A stretch of DNA of 34,250 bases from Folioceros fuciformis (taxonomy: Eukaryota): positions 1-34,250 of the forward strand of contig JBNGIO010005257.1 in the NCBI GenBank assembly GCA_049999805.1. The letters are read 5' to 3'. Under the pieces are notes generated by a model, which saw only the letters and a program-made list of their open reading frames with translations, did no database searches and had not been told where the DNA came from. How positions within the stretch are numbered: the first letter of the stretch is position 1; the number at the start of each line of letters is the position of its first letter. The translations under genes and the position numbers were made by a program. This document shows, piece by piece, positions 4,020 through 34,250 of this stretch.

Positions 4020-5330
4020 GAATGGTTTCACGGACTTGGGCAAAAGGGTTGTGATGACATCGTGCCCTGAGAACAGAGAATAACAGAGCATTCTAGTGTA
4101 CTGTAGTACGGGATGGACGAGGAACCCCCTCGTCTTTCCAGGGTGTGCAAGATGGAGACACCGTTGCACCCTGTAGGATGAAATTTTTGTGACTCCTGTA
4201 AGCATGTGGAAGTGTGGGCATCCTGGCATTAGAGGAAGAGCAGTACCTTGCCATGCGCAGACTAGCAAGCACGGATGCGCGCTGATGCATTTGTCGCTCC
4301 AAGTTTAGTAGATACGTAAACAGCATTTTCAGCCTGGCAGATGGATGAGTGTGACGGACTGGGCCAGAAAGATGTGGTGGCGTGGAATGTCATGATAGCA
4401 CTGTATTTCCATTAGGTCAAGGGTGAGGAGGCCCTCTGTCTGTATACTGTTGGCCAGTGGACGGCACAGCTGTATTAGATGTCGTGCCGCTTGTGGGATC
4501 CTGAAGGCATGTGCAAGTGTGGGCTCGCCAACTGTGGGAGCAAAGGACACAACGTTTTTGCACAAATTGGAGAAGAAAGACATGAAGCAAAGGTGTTTGT
4601 AGCCAGCAGTCTAGTAAGGATGTGTGGCCGCTGAGAGGATGGGCAGAGAAGGTTTGACGGGGTTGGTTGAAAATAGTTGGTGACATGGACTGCTCTACGT
4701 GCAGTGTATTCTTATAAGGGCATGGGCCAGGAATCATGTCTTCTCCACGGTTTTGTGCGAGAAGAACGAACCGGTGTAATCAGTTTATGCGCCTCCTGCA
4801 AAGTTTCGGAGACTGGGAAGCAGTTTCATGCAAAGCAGAGAACAAGGGCATGGATCTGATACGTTTGTAGCCGACATATGTCCAAAGGCTGCCATGGCAG
4901 CTCTCCGCATGTTCACAGAGTGTCTGTCGACGGACTTGGTCAAAATGATATAGTGACATGCATTGCTGCAGTTGCAGGCTAGGATATTCGCTGCAGTCCT
5001 TGGGTCAAGAAGGCCCCTTTTCTCTACAGTGCTTTTCAAGAAGAAGCCCTCTCGACATTCTCAGCTTCAAGAACAAGGGCTTGAAGTTGGCACTCTGATC
5101 TACATGCATGTGAAGTCGGGTATCGTGGTGGACGCAAAGCAGCCGTCTTATCTGTAGCCCAAAAGAGACAATTTGTCCTGGAATGTAAGCTACAGTTGCG
5201 AAAGAGAGAACAGTGGCTACGACTTGGTCCGAGAATGAGAGGAAGGCGTGGCATACAGAGCAAATCAGCATCACATTTATGGGTGTAGCTGTATGCACAC
5301 GCATGTGGAACTTCGAGGCGTATTTGTTCT
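4020..5330 (+). pseudogene. Heavily degenerate PLS-class PPR pseudogene
   Basis: PPR motif remnants in changing frames, broken by stops and indels: DGLGQKDVVAWNVMIALY (4353-4406, then a stop, then KGEEALCLY), GILKACASVG (4495-4524), AKVFVASSLVRMCGR* (about 4587-4634), VTWTALRAVYSYKGMGQES (about 4680-4735), ETGKQFHA, DGLGQNDIVTC (about 4928), GTLIYMHVKSG (about 5090), RDNLSWNV (about 5165), ITFMGV...ACG (about 5270-5310). Boundaries are approximate. Confidence 0.75.
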
Positions 5331-23191: not shown

Positions 23192-24736
23192 TCAGGTCGG
23201 AATGACCGGGATGATTGTAGTGCCCTCGTTGTTAATACCACTCGAGTTAGTTAGGGCACCAGTTTCACGAGACTGACTGCCCTTGGTGAACATACCTTCT
23301 AAGTGATCCAAACTTGGCTGGAAAGAATGAACAACAGATGTGTAGCGCTGGCATTCAGCCTCTTCCGAATAATCCACATCATAGGGGCATGAGGGAAAGC
23401 TGTGAAGCGATTTGCTCGTAACACTGTAAAGCAGAAGTATTGGAGTGCCCCGTACGAAGAGCGCAAGTTTGTCCCCTTGGCCTGCGAAGAGAAACCCGCG
23501 ATGGCGATTATGTGGCAACAGTTCGAGGAGGACTTCTGATTCTATTTTGTCAGTTTCGTGCCATGTCCCCCCATCAAGCTCCCAGACGCAGACACACATT
23601 CCGCTTTTCCCGCTGTCATTGTGCACTTCTCCAACGAGGCAAAGCCTTTCCTGAAGTTCGATGAGATTACAAGAGATCCATGGATTTGACCAGTCTACCG
23701 AGTGTCGCGTGACAAAGCTGCATTCAGGGACAGGAATTACCGAAAAGGAGTCCTCTTGGTCTGCATAGCATACGACTATAAGGCCATAAAGCTTAGACTC
23801 GGCCAACCAGTATCTCCGACCATTCCATGCAGTGATGTTCCCCATGATCCGAGAAATTGCAACTGGCACAATGTGTTTCGATGTCTCCCAAACTTCATTG
23901 CCAGTCTCATAGGCGCAAATTGTCATTTGCAAATAGTTAGGTCCTACCTCTTCTGATCCGTCGTCATAAACCTTGTGATCCGGAAACTCGTGAGCACCGT
24001 TGTCCGGTAGATCCTGATGCCTGATGAGAAACACTCTGTACGAGCTCTGTGATTCGTGATAGCTCATAGATACGAAATGGTATTCACTTCCAAGAGGAGG
24101 ATCAGGTACCGCTTCCCATGTCTTCCTGACCGGATTGACCACCACAACTGGTGGCATATTAGGTGAATGCAGAAGGCAACAGAGCAGCCCGCCAGCGCAT
24201 GCAGCACTGATGACTCGAAGCGCATGGGAAAGAAATTCTGGCACTAACATCTGCCAATATTGGTCAAGAGAACCGACGCCATTCTGCACACTACTTCCAC
24301 AATTTGCCTCACTCTCCACTGCCAGCTTCAGGAACCATGACACACTCCCGGAAGTTATCTTGTCAACTATCCAGATCAAAGACGCGGACTCAGCCTGCAC
24401 AGACCTCACAAATGCCGGTTGTCCAACTTCTGCCGGATCCGTTTTCTCTCTTGTCCGTTGCTCCTCGCCCTTCTCCATCACCGGCTCGCTCCCAGGAATT
24501 GAAACTGATGTATCCGGTTCCAAACTAGGTGTTGTGACGTCCACCAGCAGGAGCACCGGTACCATGTTATTTCGAGGCAGAACCAATGGTGCGCACGAAC
24601 TAAGATCCTGGTAACATTCAAGATCCGACATGGACCGATAGCCGGATTCACTTCCCTCTTCTGATTCAAGATCGTCGCCATCACTCTCCAGCTCAGCCTC
24701 GTCCAACGCTTTGCGGAGGAATCCCATAGTTTCCAT
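23192..24736 (-). CDS. F-box/kelch-like beta-propeller protein lacking the F-box (paralogue of the adjacent gene), 514 aa, intronless
   Basis: Single ORF. C-terminal ~390 aa is colinear with the neighbouring F-box protein (WFLKLAV, AGGLLCC, VVVNPVRKTWEAVPDPP, SCNLIELQERLCLVGEV, PSCPY...FQPSLD). The N-terminus is acidic and low-complexity, with no LP.D/..R...VCK.W motif. Confidence 0.8.
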   Translation of the reverse strand: METMGFLRKALDEAELESDGDDLESEEGSESGYRSMSDLECYQDLSSCAPLVLPRNNMVPVLLLVDVTTPSLEPDTSVSIPGSEPVMEKGEEQRTREKTDPAEVGQPAFVRSVQAESASLIWIVDKITSGSVSWFLKLAVESEANCGSSVQNGVGSLDQYWQMLVPEFLSHALRVISAACAGGLLCCLLHSPNMPPVVVVNPVRKTWEAVPDPPLGSEYHFVSMSYHESQSSYRVFLIRHQDLPDNGAHEFPDHKVYDDGSEEVGPNYLQMTICAYETGNEVWETSKHIVPVAISRIMGNITAWNGRRYWLAESKLYGLIVVCYADQEDSFSVIPVPECSFVTRHSVDWSNPWISCNLIELQERLCLVGEVHNDSGKSGMCVCVWELDGGTWHETDKIESEVLLELLPHNRHRGFLFAGQGDKLALFVRGTPILLLYSVTSKSLHSFPSCPYDVDYSEEAECQRYTSVVHSFQPSLDHLEGMFTKGSQSRETGALTNSSGINNEGTTIIPVIPT

Positions 24737-24995
24737 CGCTCAGAGCTCCCGGAGGGTGGTGGTCGGAGGGGTACAATTTATGAGGCGAAAGGCTTTCAAA
24801 CACAGACGTGAAAGAGGTCGAGCGTGCCCGATTGTTCCAGTAGGTTTGTTACAGCCGTTTGTACTTTAAACGAAGTATGTTGATAACCAATTGTAATTGA
24901 TAAGTACTAGGGTGCACGGCTTTGCAAACTATGTACCAGGAGAGAAGAGAGTTCATGCATTGAGATCGAAAAGCTGATAAGTAACCTCGTAAGTT

Positions 24996-26363
24996 TCACA
25001 AATTGTTAACCACATTCAAAGAGTGAATGAAGGAGTCTTCTATTGAATCCAGTCTAGGCTCGAAGGGCAGAACTACCGAACAGCACAAGGCCTCCCACCT
25101 ACTAGACTGCTCGACATAGTAGGGGCAATCCGGCAGCCTGCGGAAACATTTTTGAGAGAAGTCGTAAGCCAGAGATGCTGAGCAGCCATGCACACTTAGC
25201 CACATTACATCATCCCGGGCCACAAAGGTGAAGATGCCCTGAAGGGGGCTCCTGTCGAGGAGCCTGATGTAGGTCTCCGCTGGGACACGGCCGATCTCAT
25301 GCCACTGCATTGGCTTCTGAAGATACTCCCAGATACGAATGTTGACCTCATGGGTGCCATCCTCACTGACTACTTCTCCAACCAGCAGGAGCCGCCCTTG
25401 CTGCTCCACCAGGTTGCAGGACAGGGAAGCCATGCAGTGAAGGCCCTCAAACCGATTACGTACCCAAGGAAACATGCAGGTCCTGTCAGCCAAAGGACAT
25501 GGTGGAAGCTGGACCTTTGTCCAGACATCCTGGTACACGTTGTACGACAGCACACTGTGGCACAGCGGGAGCCTGTCAACAGTGAGCCAGTAGAGCCGGC
25601 CGTCGCAGAAAGTGGCATTGCCTTCAATCTCAAAGCCTCTGTACACAGGAAGGATGTGAACTGAGGTGTTCCATGACCTACTTCCAGAGTCGAAGATGCT
25701 TACCATGAAGTGCAAAAAGGTTTCGAACTCATCTTCCTGGCCGTAGCCATCGTCGTCTCCATCGCCTTCGTAGTAGTCACTAAGGATTACCTTGTAAGTC
25801 TTGGAGCCTAGATTGTGCACCATGGCCACTTTTTGAAACCTTCTGTTAGGGGGATCCGGTAGAGTCCGCCATGACCTTGTCAAGGGATTAACTATAACAA
25901 CAGAGCGGGCGTACTCCAGATTAGAGGCAATCGCACAGCACAGCAATCCCCCGGCAGAAGCAACGGAATGGATGTTCCACGTCGGAAGAAAATCCAGCGA
26001 CACCTTGTGCCATTTGCTCAGGCAAGGATCATGGCCTCCTGGAACTGTTCCGCTGCCGATATCCACCGCAAGGCGCAGGAACCAGGGCAAACGAGACGAA
26101 ATCATGGCGTTTTGCTCTAAGAACTTCCTCGCAGACAGCAAAATGTTCCACTTCTTGCAGACTTTGCGGAACCTGCAAACACTCAACGGAGGCAGGTGAA
26201 CCAGCACTCTTTCCACCACATCTGCCGGAAGAGCGGCCCACACCTCGGGCTCCATCTCTACTCCCTCTTGCGACTGCTCCTTGGAGCAATCCAACATGAG
26301 AACCACAACATGGCATTGTCTGCGGGCCGCGGTAGATCTAGATCCTTCCCCCCTCCATGCCAT
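24996..26363 (-). CDS. F-box/kelch-repeat-type protein, intronless, about 455 aa (alternative start 26255)
   Basis: F-box WAALPADVVERVLVHLPPLSVCRFRKVCKKWNILL, followed by HDPCLSKW, VASAGGLLC, IVNPLTRSWRTLP and C-terminal FEPRLD, typical of plant F-box/kelch-like (UFO/LCR-related) proteins. Confidence 0.9.
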   Translation of the reverse strand: MAWRGEGSRSTAARRQCHVVVLMLDCSKEQSQEGVEMEPEVWAALPADVVERVLVHLPPLSVCRFRKVCKKWNILLSARKFLEQNAMISSRLPWFLRLAVDIGSGTVPGGHDPCLSKWHKVSLDFLPTWNIHSVASAGGLLCCAIASNLEYARSVVIVNPLTRSWRTLPDPPNRRFQKVAMVHNLGSKTYKVILSDYYEGDGDDDGYGQEDEFETFLHFMVSIFDSGSRSWNTSVHILPVYRGFEIEGNATFCDGRLYWLTVDRLPLCHSVLSYNVYQDVWTKVQLPPCPLADRTCMFPWVRNRFEGLHCMASLSCNLVEQQGRLLLVGEVVSEDGTHEVNIRIWEYLQKPMQWHEIGRVPAETYIRLLDRSPLQGIFTFVARDDVMWLSVHGCSASLAYDFSQKCFRRLPDCPYYVEQSSRWEALCCSVVLPFEPRLDSIEDSFIHSLNVVNNL

Positions 26364-27235
26364 GGCACAGGTTCCCACAGCTCGTCACACATACACACGG
26401 TATCCGCTCCACTTTGATAACCCACGCAGCACAGGGATCCTCCTCTCCCTTGGGCCGCAAAGGCTCCTTTCCTTCTAGGAGAAAACGAAGGCCACATCAG
26501 ACAGAGAATCGATGACCATCTTCGACTCCGATCTGATTGCAGAGATCCGAAACGAAGGTAAGGTTGGATGATCTCCGGAAATGCTATTTCAAAACTCTTA
26601 CTAACACAAGATCCTGGAGCACACGATACGATTGCACACCATGGCATACAGTTCGGGAAGTACAACCAGCCCGTTCGAGAGTTAACCCTTTCATCGAGCG
26701 TGGATACTGAGTCGTTCATTGCGCAAAAATTACGGATGTATTGGATGAAGGCTAGGACTCACCCGGTGCGAGGCCCAGGCGTTCAAGCGTCAGTTCACTT
26801 CGTTTCTTGACGTTTTTCTACAGTGCCTCCTGCTTGCGACCACCTGTTAGCCCAATCAACTGTTTCGCACGTTCAGTGTGGGACTCCAGATAACTGAGCC
26901 AAAAGCTCCCAGTCTGTAATCCAGACCACCGTGACTCACGACCCACAGCCAGATAAGGCTCCCTGCAATGTAAGGATGCCTGCATGTGATTTTACATCCG
27001 TTAGCTCCGGCTACTTCATTGCACCCACCGTCGGAGAACGACTAGTCTGCTACATCCATCTGCGGCATGTCCGACAGCAACCTTGAGCCCCGTTGGAGGC
27101 GAGTTGTCAAAAGGGTAGCATTGGGAAGGATACGACAGAACATGGTCAACGCGGGCCATTTCGTTGCAATCTCCCTCGTTCCAGGTTGTAAGCAGGTACA
27201 GAACCTCGCCAGAGGCTCTTTCCAGCCACCGCAGG

Positions 27236-29110
27236 CTACGGCAAGAAGCTAAGCAGATGCTTCCGTCTGTCGTTCAGAACTGCAACAAAAGTTGGGCCTA
27301 GGCTTTTCGACAGCTCTTGCAAGCCACCCTGGTCTCCTTCTCTCTGACAACGTTTCACCATCTTTTGTAGTAGTTCCCTCGATGGTTTGTAGCCCGCAGA
27401 CACCATTATCTCCAATGCGTCGAAAGCTGCTCTGACGTCTCGATTTACAACCTGAGCTTCAATGAGAAGAGAGTGCGTTCGGTAGTCTGGACTCACCCCG
27501 ATCTGTGCCATGTACCCGGATATTTGCAACACTTGAGCTGTTTTCCTGCTCTTGCCAAAGGCATGCAGCAACGCATTGCAAGAATGCACATCGGGTCTCA
27601 AATCGAAGACCGACCCCATGGCATCAAACGTCTGGTAAGCCCGGTCTGCATCCCAGATCTTGGCACTGGCAAGAATGACACAATTGATGGCCGCTGCAGA
27701 TACCGGATCCCCAGCTTTCAACCTATCCTCCAGCTTGAAGTAAGCAGCATCGACGGCAGCTGCTCCTCCTTTGGAGCAAGCCCTGACCAGGGGCATCAAA
27801 GATCCAAACGGCGATAGAACTTCCGGGTCGAAGTCAGGGTGTGAGTCTCCATGGGCCACCTCCAACTCATGCAACGCACTGAAAGCAGAGTTCAAATCCC
27901 CTGCAGCTGAGAATGCATGCAGGCGAGCCAGAAAGGCAGGAACACTAGGAGGGCAGGATTCTCCCAGAGACTGCTTCAAGAGATGCCAAGCTTGGTCTGC
28001 CAGATCCTTGTTGGCAGTCCGAGCAGCCGTGCTAAGCACAGCGATCATCCCCCCCTCATCCATGAGCAGATGATTCGTGAGCTTCCATTTCGACCCATCG
28101 TTCATAAATTGGAGAGCCAGCGTAGCGCATTCTGCATCATCCACCTCCGCGGCCACAGCAAGAAGCTCCGCTAGAGTCGCCAAGATGGGAGTCACCGACT
28201 GACTCTTGAGCTCCTTCAACACAGAAACAGCGACGCCGGTCCGCCTCAACCTGCCTGCCGCAATGAGCACCTCGTTGTAGGTGATCCTGCTGGGCACAAA
28301 CCCCTTCTCCACCATCGCCTGCATGTGTTTCAGAGCTGCATCCAGACGACGATGCAATGCACACAAAGCCACCACAAAATTGTAAGAATCTCCGTCGGGC
28401 TGAGATTCCGGGCCTCCCTTCTCCATCCTCTGCACAAGCTGCTCTGCCATTTCCGAGTTCCTGGCTCGGAAAGCAGACCGCATCACAAAGGAGAATGAGA
28501 CCAAATTCGGCGTCAGCCCCTCAGTCTCCATGTCATCCACAACACGGACCAAGTCCTCGGGAGCGGCATTCGCTCGCAGCTTGGCCTGAAGCAGCAGGTT
28601 GTAGGCTACGACACTGGCCTTGTTCGGCTGGCCTGCGCTGTCAGTCCCTTTCTTCCACTCCTCAAACATGTTCACAGCCTCCTCAGCCTTCCCCTGCGAC
28701 AGGCTGCTAGACATCTCCCTAGACAAGGTGGCCAGATCGAAAGCGGCAACTGGCAGATGCGGTTCCTGAGGCCGTAATGGCGGCCCAAAGCTGCCCTCCT
28801 GCAAAGTGGGTGCTGCATCTTCCAAACTGTTCAGAGGCGGGGACTCATTGTCGTCCCCTGGCTCAGGATACGAGGTAGCGACTTCCTGCTGAAGGTCCAG
28901 CTGCGGGAGCTGCCATGTAGGTGCACTGGTGCTGATTTTCCTGCCCTCTGCTGCATTGCCTGATCTGGCTGGAACGTCTACCGGCTCGACTCCCTCGGGC
29001 CTCAGAAACCAAGATGCAAGCTGGGCTTGCTGGGAGGAGGAGCCCCTGGAGTGGGACACGGAGGTGAGACAGCGGACCAGCGCCCGCTGCGCACCTCGCA
29101 AGATTGCCAT
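27236..29110 (-). CDS. P-class pentatricopeptide repeat protein, likely mitochondrial, At1g26460-like, 624 aa, single exon
   Basis: First ATG at 29110 gives an Arg/Ser-rich presequence-like N-terminus (MAILRGAQRALVRCLTS). Blocks GQPNKASVVAYN, DEGGMIAVLSTAART, LSPFGSLMPLVRACSK, AAINCVILASAKIWDADRAYQTF and PSRELLQKMVKRCQRE match Arabidopsis At1g26460 as recalled. Confidence 0.88.
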   Translation of the reverse strand: MAILRGAQRALVRCLTSVSHSRGSSSQQAQLASWFLRPEGVEPVDVPARSGNAAEGRKISTSAPTWQLPQLDLQQEVATSYPEPGDDNESPPLNSLEDAAPTLQEGSFGPPLRPQEPHLPVAAFDLATLSREMSSSLSQGKAEEAVNMFEEWKKGTDSAGQPNKASVVAYNLLLQAKLRANAAPEDLVRVVDDMETEGLTPNLVSFSFVMRSAFRARNSEMAEQLVQRMEKGGPESQPDGDSYNFVVALCALHRRLDAALKHMQAMVEKGFVPSRITYNEVLIAAGRLRRTGVAVSVLKELKSQSVTPILATLAELLAVAAEVDDAECATLALQFMNDGSKWKLTNHLLMDEGGMIAVLSTAARTANKDLADQAWHLLKQSLGESCPPSVPAFLARLHAFSAAGDLNSAFSALHELEVAHGDSHPDFDPEVLSPFGSLMPLVRACSKGGAAAVDAAYFKLEDRLKAGDPVSAAAINCVILASAKIWDADRAYQTFDAMGSVFDLRPDVHSCNALLHAFGKSRKTAQVLQISGYMAQIGVSPDYRTHSLLIEAQVVNRDVRAAFDALEIMVSAGYKPSRELLQKMVKRCQREGDQGGLQELSKSLGPTFVAVLNDRRKHLLSFLP

Positions 29111-29478
29111 CACCGCATCCAAGCTACAGCCCGCTGACCCAGGTGCGGTGAAGTACGTGCCTATGCAGCAGGCGAATAGGTTTAGGGCAATTGCCTTTTG
29201 CCTCTGAATTTGAAGGAGACGAGAGGTAGATGGTTTGGCATCTTACACGGAGGCAATCAAGGAGGAGGTATGGGTAGGTAAGGATCTTATTCTGGGGTGA
29301 CAGGAAACGTGGGTCTATGCAAGAACTGCGAATTATGTATTCATGGGGACAGCAATCTGTACATCTGGGTTACCACTGCAGTCACCGGAATCCTCTTGTC
29401 TCTTTCGGCCGATGAACTGTGAATGGGTGCTGTACAGGAAGGTCTTGCTCCTTGAGTGGCCTCTGTTACAAAGTCCGG

Positions 29479-32400
29479 ATGAGGGCGTGGTTCTGGACCA
29501 AATTGCAAGGAGTTCACAGGACCACATGGGAGCCCGTTTTGAAGAGCACTCGGTACAATTCGCCTCGTGTGAAGCGGAAGCAGGCATTTTGGGCACAGTT
29601 TCCTACCGGAAAAGTACTTCCAGACCATTTCAGTTCTGGGAACTCAGTCGCAGCTCATGTGAGGCTACACAACGTAGCTCCGCGCTCTGTTGAAGAAGTC
29701 TACACGTTGTGTGACGAGGGGCGACTCCATGAGGCCCTGCTTGCAGCGGAAGGTGTGGGCCAGCGAGGGATGGCACTCACAGTAGACTGCGTTATCTGCT
29801 TGATCCAAGGATGCGGCAGAAAGAAAGATCTAGGAGCTGTCAGGCGTTTGCAAATGATAATGGTGGATCAAGGGTTTAGTTCAGACATCTTTCTTGGAAA
29901 CAATCTTATTCACCTGTTTGCCTCATGCGGTGCGTTGTTGGAAGCAAAGCAAGTGTTTCGTCAGACTTTGGACCCGAATGTGTACTCCTGGCAGGCTATT
30001 ATCTCAGCCCATGCTAACCATGGTCAGGGTGATGAAGCTATCAGGTTGTTTCAGGAAATGTTGTGCTCAGATGTGAAGCCAAACAACCACGTGTATGTAG
30101 CTGTCTTGAAAGCATGCGCCGTCTCGGGGGGCTTGGCTAGTGGGAGATGGATTCACAGCTATATGGTGGAAAGCGGATTTCAGTCAAATACGTATGTGGG
30201 GAACACAGTCATCGACATGTATGCGAAATGCGGAAGCACGGACGAGGCCAGAAAAGTGTTTGATGGCTTGTCACCGAGGAACTTAGTTTCGTGGAATGCC
30301 ATGATAGCTGGATACGTTAATAGTGGACAAGGTCAGGCTGCTCTTGATCTGTTTCAGAAAATGCGAGCAGAGGACATCCAACCAGATAAGAGCACTTTCT
30401 CAAGCATCTTCAAAGCTTGTGGCAACTTAGTAGCCATTGATCAGGGCAGACAAATTCATTCGGAGTTTACTGAAAATGGGTTGCCGCTCGGAGTAGTGGT
30501 TGGAAATACTCTGATTGATATGTATGTTAGATGTGGCAAACTAGAAGAGGCCCGCAGAGTGTTTGATGCGTTGGAAGCTCGGGATGTGATTTCATGGAAT
30601 GCCATGATTGCCGGATATGCCCAGGATGGACATGCTCTAGAAGCTCTAGAATGTTTCGGGCAAATGGAGCAGGAGGGTGTTGTACCTAACAAGGTTACTT
30701 TCATAAGCCTCCTGAAGGCCTGCGGGAACATTGCCGCCCTGGGTCAGGGCCGGAAGATTCATGCTCAGCTTGTCGAAGCTGGACTTGATGCTGATGTTGT
30801 TGTTGGGACCAGCCTTGTGCACATGTATGCCAGATGTGGGAACCTTGATGAGGCGTATGGTGTATTTGAAAAGTTGACGGAAAGGAGTGTCGTGTCTTGG
30901 AACGCCGTCATTGGAGCATATGCCCAGCATGGGTTTGGGAGAGAGGCATTACAACTGTTTGAGCAGATGCAACAGCAGGGCTTTAAACCAGATGACATCA
31001 CCTTGGTTTCTGTACTTTCTGCGTGCAGCCATGCTGGTCTCTTAGAGCAGGGATATCAATTATTCAAGTCTATGCTCAAGGATTTCAGCATTAAGCCAGG
31101 AATGTATCATCACGCATGTATGGTCGACATGCTTAGCCGGGCTGGCCACTTGCAGCAAGCAGAGGACTTCATCAAACAGATGCCTTTTGAGCCTGACGTG
31201 GACATTTGGATGACAGTCCTTGGTGCCTGTCAAGCATTTGGGGATGTCGAGTTGGGAAGGCGGGCATTTGAGAGTATCATTAGGCTGCAGCCGCTGAACG
31301 AGGCAGCATATGTCCAGATGTCCAACATTCTTGCCGCTGCAGGGAGGCCAGACGATGCAGCCGAACTGAGAAAGGACATGCGCGATGCAGGAATGCTGAA
31401 GTCACCAGGGAGGACGTGGATAGAGGTAGACGATCAGATGCACAGTTTCTTGGTAGAGGATAAGGATCACTCTCTGCGGCAAGAAATTTATGCTAAACTG
31501 AGGCAGCTGGCACCCTTAGTAGAAGCGGAGATGAGAAATAGAGTTCTGGCAGAGGATAGCTGTTCTGACACTGAACCCAAGGGCACACAGTATGCGGACC
31601 AGGGGGTGTCCAGTACAAACTCTATCAGGTAAGCTTTCCCCCACTGAGTCACTCTACGCTCTATATTGATGAATGAACAAAGGGCTCGTTGTGTACTGCA
31701 TGCTAATCTCTCTCGTTTCTTTGCCTGCCGTGCAGTGTGAGAGAGCCGTTATGCTCTTTTAGCTCAGCAGAAGATGTGAGCAACCTTTGTGAGCAGGGGC
31801 GACTGCAAGAAGCTTTGCAGATAGTAAGGGGTAGGATCCAACAAGACATGCCCATTTCCAAGCTCCTATTGTTCAATCTTCTTCAGTTCTGCATCAAAGC
31901 AAAAGATGTGGCAACTGGCAGGCTCGTGCATACCCTGATCAGGGAGAAAGGGCTCGACTCTGATGTTTTCTTCGGGAACAACCTTATTCGCTTATTTTCC
32001 TCTGGTGGATGTTTGTCTGAAGCACGCCAAATTTTCCTTGGAATCACATCACCAAATGTCTACACCTGGCAGGCTATTATTTCCGCCCACGCCAAACATG
32101 GGCAAGGTAGTGAGGCCATCAAGTTGTACCAGCAGATGCAAATCTCATGCGTAGTGCCAAACACCTACGTCTATGTTGCAGCCTTAAAAGCATGTGCTTC
32201 CTTGGGGGCCTTGAAACAGGGCAGGTGGATACATGCCCATGTCCTTGAAGCCGGCCTCCAGGCAAATGTCTTTGTAGGAAATACACTCATCGACATGTAC
32301 GCCAAGTGTGGGTGCTTGGAGGAGGCAAAGCGAGTGTTTGACAACTTGGCAGCCAAAGACGTTGTTTCATGGAACACGATGATTGCCGGATATGCACAGC

Positions 32401-32534
32401 ATGGACACGGGGAGGAAGCGTTTGGACTCTTTCAGAAAATGCAGCACGCAAGGATGACGCCGGACAGGGCCACATTGTCAAGTATTGAGAAAGCATGTCG
32501 TCATCTGACATCACTTGTACCAAGCACATCGTGA
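29479..32534 (+). CDS. PLS-class PPR protein: 14 PPR motifs, E1, E2, E+/PG box, then (after intron 31629-31735) a second PLS array; about 982 aa spliced or 717 aa unspliced
   Basis: Exon 1 29479-31628: L-S-(P-L-S)x3-P2-L2-S2-E1-E2, then SPGRTWIEVDDQMHSF; no HxE/CxxC deaminase motif or DYW end. Donor AG|GTAAGC at 31628/9, branch-like TGCTAAT at 31701, pyrimidine tract and acceptor TGCAG| at 31735. Exon 2 31736-32534 is in frame (L-S-P-L-S-P plus partial L). Start codon uncertain. Confidence 0.85.
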
Positions 32535-33190
32535 CGTCGGTTGCAACAACAACAATAGAGATCTTGTGTCAACTGCATGCTCTGATCCAACCTAGGTGAC
32601 TTCCTCTCCCAAATGAACTCTAATGTTTGAAGCGTTTTCTCTTTGTAATATGATGATTTCCTTGGTGCTTACTGACTGTGTGGCCTGTTCTTGTCATTGT
32701 CACATGCTTGGACGTCTGTAGAGACGTTTCAGGCACTAGATTCATCTCTGTTGTGGACAGATGCATCCAGCATTTCCAGTCACAACTGGTTGTTTGGCAG
32801 GTAAGGTAGGTGAACGACCGGGTTTTGCCTTTGCCGTGTCGGATCCTTTGTTGGGAGTATCTAAATAACCGAAGGCCTTTCTGGAGTCTGATGAACAATG
32901 CTCTTTGGTACAGAGAGATGTAACGGGCCTTTTAGTCTTCCCGAAGGTGGAGAGAAGGACAGGGTAACAAGTGAGTGTTTCCAGCGCAAGGACCCGATTT
33001 CTGTCACAGACTTCAGGCTCCAGCGCTGATTGGGCTAGTGGACCGTACAAGTAGGAGAGAAAAGATCTAGAGGTATAGCCAGAATCAAGTGATACATGTC
33101 GGGATCCTTCCCTGGGCTCAGGTATGTCGAAGGCCGCCATGCACATGTGTGAAGGTGAGCTTTACGGCAAGGAGTCTCGCCCTCGCCCCA

Positions 33191-34250
33191 TCACGCACCC
33201 TGCTGGGGGCCATCTCTGAAGACGACCCCTTCTACCAGGCGTGCCCCTCTCGACTTTGCGAAATAGAGGCCCATGTAGTGGGTCAATTCCTGAGAGGCAA
33301 GCAAACAAAAGAAGGCGACAAGTCAGGTGTTTTATATCTTCATTATAAGAAATTTAGTGGAATCCACCACTGAAGGAGTCTACTACTACTACGGTCCAGT
33401 GGGAAGGAATTTTCCTGTCCTGGGATTCGGTACTTGACAACTTCCACCACCGTGTGCCTAAGCTCATTGCACCAAGGGAATCCACTCCCTCTACCCCATC
33501 TGAGCGCAGGATGGTTTGTCTCGGCCAGGTAACACATGTTTGTCCATTTGGACTAAGCCATTTGGACGCACATGCAAGAGCCCCGGCAGATGTTGCTTCA
33601 CAACTGATCACATCCTGAATCGAGAGGCCAAATTTTACGAACAGATGTATTTTTACATGCCAAGAAAGGTATACCTGGGGATGTCCTAGAGCACCCATGG
33701 AGTTTGCAACAGAAGTTGGAAGGTCATACGTCGAGCAGCCGTCAGTGTAGACGCACACCTCCTTCAAGGGGCCAAGTACTCCATGGTTTCTCGCCGACAA
33801 AGCTGTCGAGACAAAGTCCATCACACAGATATCTGTGCAGATCCCCACCACGAGCAGCTGCCGATGGGACAGCAGAAAGGGATTAGGTAGTACTACCAAC
33901 CAGAGCTGCCATTCCCCGCGCCAGAGATAAAGTACAACGATAGCAGCGCAACATCCCGGCGAGCAAATAAAGGAAGACACTCACATTCTCGACATGATTC
34001 TGCTTAATCCAATCAATCACGATATTTGACCCGTCGCTCTGCATGCCACCAACGAAGCCGTTGATGCAGTCTTTGCGCATTAAGACAGCATTTTTATACT
34101 TTTCCAACCACTCGAGATCTGGCCGGTGCACAGACAGGCGAGCCAACCGTGTCAACGCCAAGCCACAAACATCCCGCTGCTGCAAACTGCGCAATTTCAC
34201 ACACCTGGCACCAAGTTCTCCTCGCCCGTGCCGATGACACAATGCAGAGG
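33191..34250 (-). CDS. NIC1: Nicotinamidase 1 (isochorismatase family), 3' part; gene continues beyond the window
   Basis: Exons >34250-34205 (PLHCVIGTGEENLVP), 34118-33985 (LEWLE...RKDCINGFVGGMQSDGSN), 33857-33675 (LLVVGICTDICVMDFVSTALSARNHG...HPQ), 33289-33191 (ELTHYMGLYFAKSRGARLV...*). Colinear with Arabidopsis NIC1 as recalled. Confidence 0.93.

Follow-up and report, generated by a model that had tools for sequence, protein, structure and literature searches.

Proteins of the PLS class of pentatricopeptide repeat (PPR) proteins are read as an N-terminal RNA-binding array followed by a C-terminal E/DYW editing module, and the prediction of editing sites relies on that order. What, then, is encoded at a locus where a second PLS array lies behind the E region of a first? 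The question is raised by the plus strand of a 34,250-nucleotide (nt) stretch of contig JBNGIO010005257.1 (hereafter the window). A first-pass annotation of the window had pointed to an open reading frame with PLS repeats and an E region (ORF1) that stops inside an apparent splice donor, and had proposed that removal of the following 107 nt would join it in frame to a second PPR reading frame (ORF2). Our analysis indicates that the locus is probably a four-exon nuclear gene from which intron 1 is removed as a rule, giving an mRNA for a 982-residue chimeric PLS-E-(E+)-PLS protein.

The sequence signals for this join are all present where the first-pass annotation had placed them. ORF1 runs from 29419 to 31632 and ends with the codons ATC AGG TAA, the stop occupying 31630-31632. 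A GTAAGC donor opens at G31629-T31630, which puts the end of exon 1 at 31628. Towards the other end of the intron, a TGCTAAT element at 31701-31707 lies 29 nt upstream of the acceptor, followed by a pyrimidine-rich stretch and by GTGCAG, which ends at 31735. Across the junction a codon is split, with AG at 31627-31628 and T at 31736. When the exons were joined by script according to their coordinates, the frame was open for 982 codons, from the ATG at 29479 to the TGA at 32532-32534, in agreement with the predicted length; the same script gave 717 codons for the unspliced frame from the same ATG. This is the first in-frame ATG, and seven other ATGs lie between 29205 and 29479. One upstream ATG, at 29343, opens a 116-codon out-of-frame reading frame that overlaps the main start; it matters only if transcription begins that far upstream.

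ORF2 spans 31737 to 32534 and comprises 265 codons. An in-frame TAA at 31704-31706, inside intron 1, precedes it, and no ATG occurs before codon 38 (31848), so that the homologous part of ORF2 has neither a start nor a presequence ahead of it. The alignment of ORF2 with ORF1 likewise starts behind the N-terminal extension of ORF1, and the earlier claim that the downstream unit lacks its own beginning holds on each of these counts.

The join itself is seen in assembled contigs from four sequencing runs (X1 to X4, of eight listed), which were aligned to positions 26500-34250; such contigs are silent on minor isoforms, transcript ends, expression levels and protein. In run X1 (organism A), a single contig of 3742 nt (record 2) matches the window with 0 differences in four blocks (Table 1). 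It skips three stretches with GT..AG borders, and the gene therefore has four exons. The cut placed by the aligner at 31625/31733 is equivalent to 31628/31736 because CAG is shared at both sides, and each of the three cuts in this contig slides by three shared letters (CAG, TAG and CAG) to give GT..AG borders on the plus strand. In run X2, from the related organism B, record 7 aligns at 30594-31625 and at 31733-32399. In runs X3 and X4, from the related organism C, records 11 and 14 align at 29225-31568 and at 31733-32399, with 57 unaligned letters between the two blocks; this is the length of 31569-31625, the last 57 nt of exon 1, which do not align. In all, the intron 1 stretch is skipped by contigs in four of the four runs aligned, representing three organisms and three studies. 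Since the same runs give CT..AC-joined contigs for a convergent gene on the minus strand, we take the contigs to derive from spliced RNA. The junction 31628^31736 is thereby confirmed and conserved, and intron 1 is removed exactly as the first-pass annotation had predicted. It is these transcripts, and no statistical argument, that set the pattern apart from chance. At 30231 and at 30580-30630, which coincide with conserved cores of the S and P motifs, the summed contig depth was very high and loose ends and false joints were many; contigs of many PPR paralogs pile up at these places.

Both reading frames contain tandem P, L and S motifs, with lengths by eye of 35, 35 and 31 residues. In ORF1 the families PPR_2 and PPR score above their Pfam cut-offs (Table 1), and the E motif (PF20431, cut-off 27.3 bits) is found at residues 608-669, directly behind the last S motif, with 52 bits; a search with the last 118 residues of ORF1 gave 41 bits. 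On the same 118 residues the Eplus_motif (PF20430) reached 16.6 bits (E = 0.0067), under its cut-off of 24 bits. We take "E+" to be the older name for the first part of the DYW domain. Residues 560-737 of ORF1 were compared by BLAST with the C-terminal 330 residues of 37 DYW-bearing PLS proteins, and across these 37 alignments the homology spans the PG box and ends at a median ORF1 residue of 702 (near 31524). Beyond that end a median of 95 residues of the DYW proteins, their catalytic part, has no counterpart in ORF1.

The deaminase itself is missing. Pfam gives no match to the DYW deaminase (PF14432) in ORF1 or ORF2, and when the last 120 residues of the 37 DYW proteins were searched against the window by tblastn, the sole matches were at 31450-31527 with E values of 0.004 or weaker, with no DYW remnant in the 3' untranslated region (UTR). 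The deaminase-free PLS-E-E+-PLS arrangement proposed by the first-pass annotation thus stands as regards the E motif and the absent catalytic part; its E+ portion is weak by Pfam, yet BLAST recovers it as the first part of a DYW domain. As read from its sequence, the ORF1 unit is a PLS-E protein with a cut-short DYW start ("E+") and no deaminase, ending in some 30 residues without homology. Splicing places about 295 residues behind the E region, of which exon 2 supplies 265, so that the E domain is not C-terminal.

ORF2 has only PPR families, which again score above their cut-offs, and its per-stretch scores are about equal to those of ORF1. It aligns without gaps to residues 90-340 of ORF1 at 52% identity, which corresponds to the N-terminal seven and a half motifs of ORF1 minus its 69-residue extension. 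That extension is basic and is a presumed organelle presequence. On the strength of the alignment, ORF1 and ORF2 are old paralogs and not a recent tandem copy, and both are truncated units. The first-pass annotation had included neither this relation between the arrays, nor the end of the second array within a motif at 32516, nor the two introns in the 3' UTR.

Comparison with the two related organisms suggests that exon 2 is under constraint, diverging no more than the adjoining coding exons. Its coding part aligns without gaps both in organism B (31733-32399 and 32376-32552) and in organism C (31733-32399 and 32372-32590). None of the ten rows of the indel table falls within 31736-32534 in either organism, the nearest being the loss of 3 nt at 32544, past the stop codon, in C; the indels inside the coding part of ORF1 sum to +3. 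On divergence figures that are biased by an 88% identity filter on the alignments, exon 2 (31733-32399) differs by 6.6% in B and 8.8% in C, as against 8.1% and 9.9% for exon 1, 8.6% and 10.2% for a neighboring P-type PPR gene, and 8.7-9.0% and 10.4-11.4% for the exons of a neighboring isochorismatase-family gene. The 3' UTR of organism C is mostly unaligned at the 88% threshold, and its 347 letters differ by 12 nt from the 359 of the spliced UTR in the window.

We propose that the mature mRNA would be translated into a protein comprising, in order, an N-terminal extension, about 15 P/L/S motifs, E1 and E2, the first third of a DYW domain with the catalytic part missing, a tail of some 30 residues, and a further seven and a half P/L/S motifs. 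Such a protein most likely originated by fusion of two neighboring, anciently diverged PLS paralogs. The first would have lost the 3' part encoding the deaminase, the second its start together with the presequence as well as its 3' two thirds, and a short intron would now bridge the junction and restore the frame. The protein would then be made, kept by selection and imported into an organelle. What the gene product does, editing included, we can only infer from the sequence. It could act as a sequence-specific RNA binder that does not deaminate by itself, in which case a deaminase acting in trans would be required for any editing. Given the parallel orientation of PPR arrays on RNA, the appended array would be positioned 3' of the site addressed by the first one; alternatively, it would contact a second RNA or a partner. 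Should the protein be made, automatic classifiers would assign the gene wrongly, the locus would show that truncated neighbors can be fused through an intron into new PPR architectures, and it would allow a natural test of the role of an array lying 3' of an editing module.

A more ambitious version of this proposal is that the second PLS array, in the place of the deaminase, is a working and selected architecture. The protein might hold organellar RNA on either side of the nucleotide targeted, or act as a tether for a PLS-DYW partner or another RNA, and so serve as a site-specific clamp or blocker or as an adaptor for a deaminase acting in trans. We put this forward only tentatively and consider it rather unlikely; were it true, it would be a PPR design not described so far and kept in at least three related species.

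Several points weigh against a translated and selected chimera. The case for constraint is one made from indels and nucleotide divergence. Under neutral simulation the probability of the 265-codon frame staying open was 0.24 at 4.4% change and 0.06 at 8.8%, which makes the frame seen in the window weak evidence if taken by itself. The homology of ORF2 breaks off within an L motif, at 32516, with no more PPR sequence behind it. A transcript starting at 29205 or further upstream would carry the seven ATGs ahead of the start codon. In plants, nonsense-mediated decay can be triggered by an intron that lies more than about 50 nt downstream of a stop codon; here the TGA lies 61 nt upstream of the exon 2/3 junction and two further GT..AG introns follow in the 3' UTR, an arrangement that could mark the mRNA for degradation. 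None of the runs is on record as RNA, and their kinds are guesses.

Nor did the protein collections searched yield a close ortholog, with or without the fusion. When ORF2 was searched against longer proteins, 3006 matches were returned with a best identity of 54%, and none of the 120 matches listed was a fused ortholog. Residues 590-737 of ORF1 gave 5 weak matches (35-41% identity), all of them angiosperm proteins of the E type. A search of 1.84 billion representatives yielded no ortholog among its best 150 matches, all 32-51% identical, and the 717-residue form, both forms of ORF2 and the P-type neighbor had no exact match in the protein collection. The PLS paralogs are similar to ones from a lycophyte, ferns, gymnosperms and a liverwort.

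Some of these points favor the strongest rival, in which the splice is real and the appended array is evolutionary debris. A truncated paralog would have come to lie in the 3' region of a DYW-less PLS gene, where it would be neutral or mildly harmful; its mRNA would be removed in part by nonsense-mediated decay, and the function would reside in the first 716 residues alone. The position of the stop codon ahead of the later introns fits this picture, as does the open frame that neutral simulation does not make significant. The second array, moreover, has no start and is cut in mid-motif, and the first unit has also lost its deaminase, so that both look like remnants. According to Table 1 of PMC3858427, P. 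patens has 10 DYW proteins and no E/E+ proteins; if the host is a bryophyte, a DYW-less PLS protein would on that account be unusual in itself, and the form seen here may be degenerate. Debris of this kind is, however, less easily reconciled with exon 2 being the least diverged segment in both comparisons and free of indels while most of the UTR fails to align, with the recurrence of the same join in three organisms, and with PPR motif scores that are undiminished. We regard this explanation as a serious possibility but an unlikely one. If the extension should prove inert, it would still serve as an instructive example of how a piece of a pseudogene can end up as a coding exon.

The first-pass annotation had gone further and suggested that splicing could switch between two architectures, retention of intron 1 giving a 717-residue E+ protein and its removal the 982-residue form. 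Were such a switch regulated, the cell would choose between the two. Retention would indeed end the frame at once, at the TAA of 31630-31632. The placing of this stop inside the donor, stressed in the first-pass annotation, is not a special device, as any phase-2 intron that begins with GTAAG reads AGG TAA when left unspliced and a stop at this position is to be expected. In all four runs aligned, the contigs crossing the site have the spliced form, and no contig retaining intron 1 was seen in them, although this does not prove its absence; the lack of an X1 contig on intron 1 is a stretch without cover and is not counted as evidence against retention. Behind its stop, a retained form would also have the junctions or the sequence of three introns. 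The switch therefore finds no support in these contigs, and we consider it improbable.

That two separate genes or an assembly artefact lie behind the join, in the form of a chimeric contig of paralogous PPR transcripts or of an intronless DNA copy, is barely credible. False joints due to PPR paralogs are indeed common in these runs (for example 29958/32293, with sides of 22-28 nt), and the kind of the runs is not on record. A false join is nevertheless unlikely here: the contig of 3742 nt shows 0 differences, the borders are exactly GT..AG and share only 3 letters, the join recurs in three organisms from three studies, and two more GT..AG joins come after it in that contig.

The coordinates of the chimeric gene that we favor are collected in Table 1.

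Table 1. Layout of the PLS gene in the window, with the evidence for each feature.
Feature	Position	Strand	Evidence
Exon 1 (left limit is the reach of the contig; coding from ATG 29479)	29205..31628	+	X1 record 2 on 29205-31625, 0 differences
N-terminal extension, 69 residues, ahead of the first PPR-like motif	29479..29685	+	No ORF2 counterpart ahead of ORF1 residue 90
First PLS array, about 15 P/L/S motifs by eye	29686..31188	+	PPR_2 267.9 bits (5 stretches), PPR 227.5 bits (6 stretches)
E1-E2 and first part of a DYW domain (PG box, "E+")	31189..31539	+	Pfam, BLAST; DYW homology ends near 31524
Non-homologous tail as putative linker, about 30 residues; last codon split AG/T	31540..31628	+	Sequence, BLAST
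Intron 1, 107 nt, GT..AG, phase 2, holds TAA 31630-31632	31629..31735	+	Skipped by contigs of X1, X2, X3 and X4
Exon 2, coding to TGA 32532-32534	31736..32595	+	X1 record 2 on 31733-32592
Second PLS array, seven motifs and a 25-residue partial L motif, by eye	31764-32516	+	PPR_2 114.8 bits, PPR 101.8 bits (3 stretches each)
Intron 2, 126 nt, GT..AG, 3' UTR	32596..32721	+	Joint 32592/32719; shared TAG shifts it to 32595/32722
Exon 3, 79 nt, 3' UTR	32722..32800	+	X1 record 2 on 32719-32797
Intron 3, 113 nt, GT..AG, 3' UTR	32801..32913	+	Joint 32797/32911; shared CAG shifts it to 32800/32914
Exon 4, 3' UTR, to at least 33292; overlaps the 3' end of the convergent minus-strand gene	32914..33292	+	X1 record 2 on 32911-33292

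The window as a whole is nuclear plant DNA. It carries F-box/kelch, AMPK beta CBM, senescence-domain, RSN1_7TM and isochorismatase genes, has a GC content of 0.496 and contains introns of 86-385 nt. Head to head with the PLS gene lies an intronless P-type PPR gene (27236-29122, minus strand), a 628-residue reading frame from a TTG with matches to the Pfam PPR families; its best named relative is from the moss Ceratodon purpureus (49%), and another protein reaches 60%. The contig of this gene (X1 record 1) covers 26640-29203 and the PLS contig starts at 29205, and because the two meet in this way the divergent transcripts would share a very short or overlapping promoter region.

On the other side, a convergent isochorismatase-family gene (33288-34250, minus strand; Pfam 27.8 bits) has CT..AC joints at 33288/33674, 33857/33985 and 34118/34205, and its 3' end overlaps the last exon of the PLS gene. 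One contig of organism C extends from PLS exon 2 into the isochorismatase exons, probably as a result of overlapping 3' UTRs having been assembled together. A further X1 contig (record 3, 352 nt, 33263-33614) runs unspliced through an intron of the minus-strand gene and reflects either intron retention in that gene or a PLS transcript with an extended 3' end. Elsewhere in the window, 4353-5187 on the plus strand shows weak PPR-like similarity to ORF1 by tblastn (21-37% identity, E from 2e-9 to 0.002) and is possibly another PPR gene, two adjoining reading frames of the F-box/beta-propeller type on the minus strand (23192-24739 and 24996-26384) are apparently tandem paralogs, and an assembly gap of 100 N lies at about 1150-1250.

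How, finally, does the proposed arrangement compare with known PPR proteins? In the literature searched we found no account of a second PLS array placed behind an E domain. We compared the E segment of ORF1 with 268 long PLS proteins, a sample picked by similarity to ORF2 and by high scores and thus not a census. There were 167 matches spanning at least 50 residues, and the tail behind the match was shorter than 160 residues in 164 of them, 174 residues in one, and 854 and 1106 residues in the remaining two. These last two, the only matches with tails above 330 residues, are both predicted models from Cryptomeria japonica (P0033 and P0115). They resemble the present gene in having an internal E domain with a PPR array behind it. 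They differ in that their units are complete, the first ending in a DYW domain with HxE and CxxCH and the second having its own N-terminal region, and they look like two whole genes read as one model, whereas the present gene joins two truncated units with transcript support.

A parallel for the first unit is provided by the E/E+ subclass of PLS editing factors of seed plants. These share with it the PLS array, E1 and E2, and only the beginning of a DYW domain, without the HxE/CxxC catalytic part; Arabidopsis CRR4 is an example, and works with the trans deaminase DYW1. In those factors, however, the E/E+ part forms the C-terminus, whereas here it would be followed by a tail of some 30 residues and by seven and a half more PLS motifs. 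The plant that carries the present gene, moreover, does not look like a seed plant, to judge from the moss relative (49% identity) of the P-type neighbor. The second array also has a counterpart of sorts in the short PPR-DYW helpers DYW2 and MEF8, which together with the P-type partner NUWA complete E+ editosomes. There too a short PPR array, of about 5-8 motifs, is associated with an E+ protein. The helpers are nevertheless separate polypeptides, and DYW2 and MEF8 bring a deaminase, in contrast to the array appended here, which is deaminase-free and would be covalently joined.

Fusions of PPR proteins with other domains have been reported in a kingdom-wide survey of editing factors, which in its accessible part describes partners with MORF, RRM and OZ domains and not an E domain followed by a PLS array; its supplementary tables might list odd PPR architectures (PMC13386178). 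For the process by which the present gene may have arisen, the nearest precedent is the radish Rfo locus, where chimeric PPR genes have reportedly formed by recombination among clustered paralogs (PMC2848758). The likeness lies in the building of new PPR genes from pieces of neighboring paralogs. The Rfo genes are P-class and restorer-like, and the exchanges took place inside one array, whereas the gene described here appears to place a second array behind an E domain and to join the two by way of an intron.

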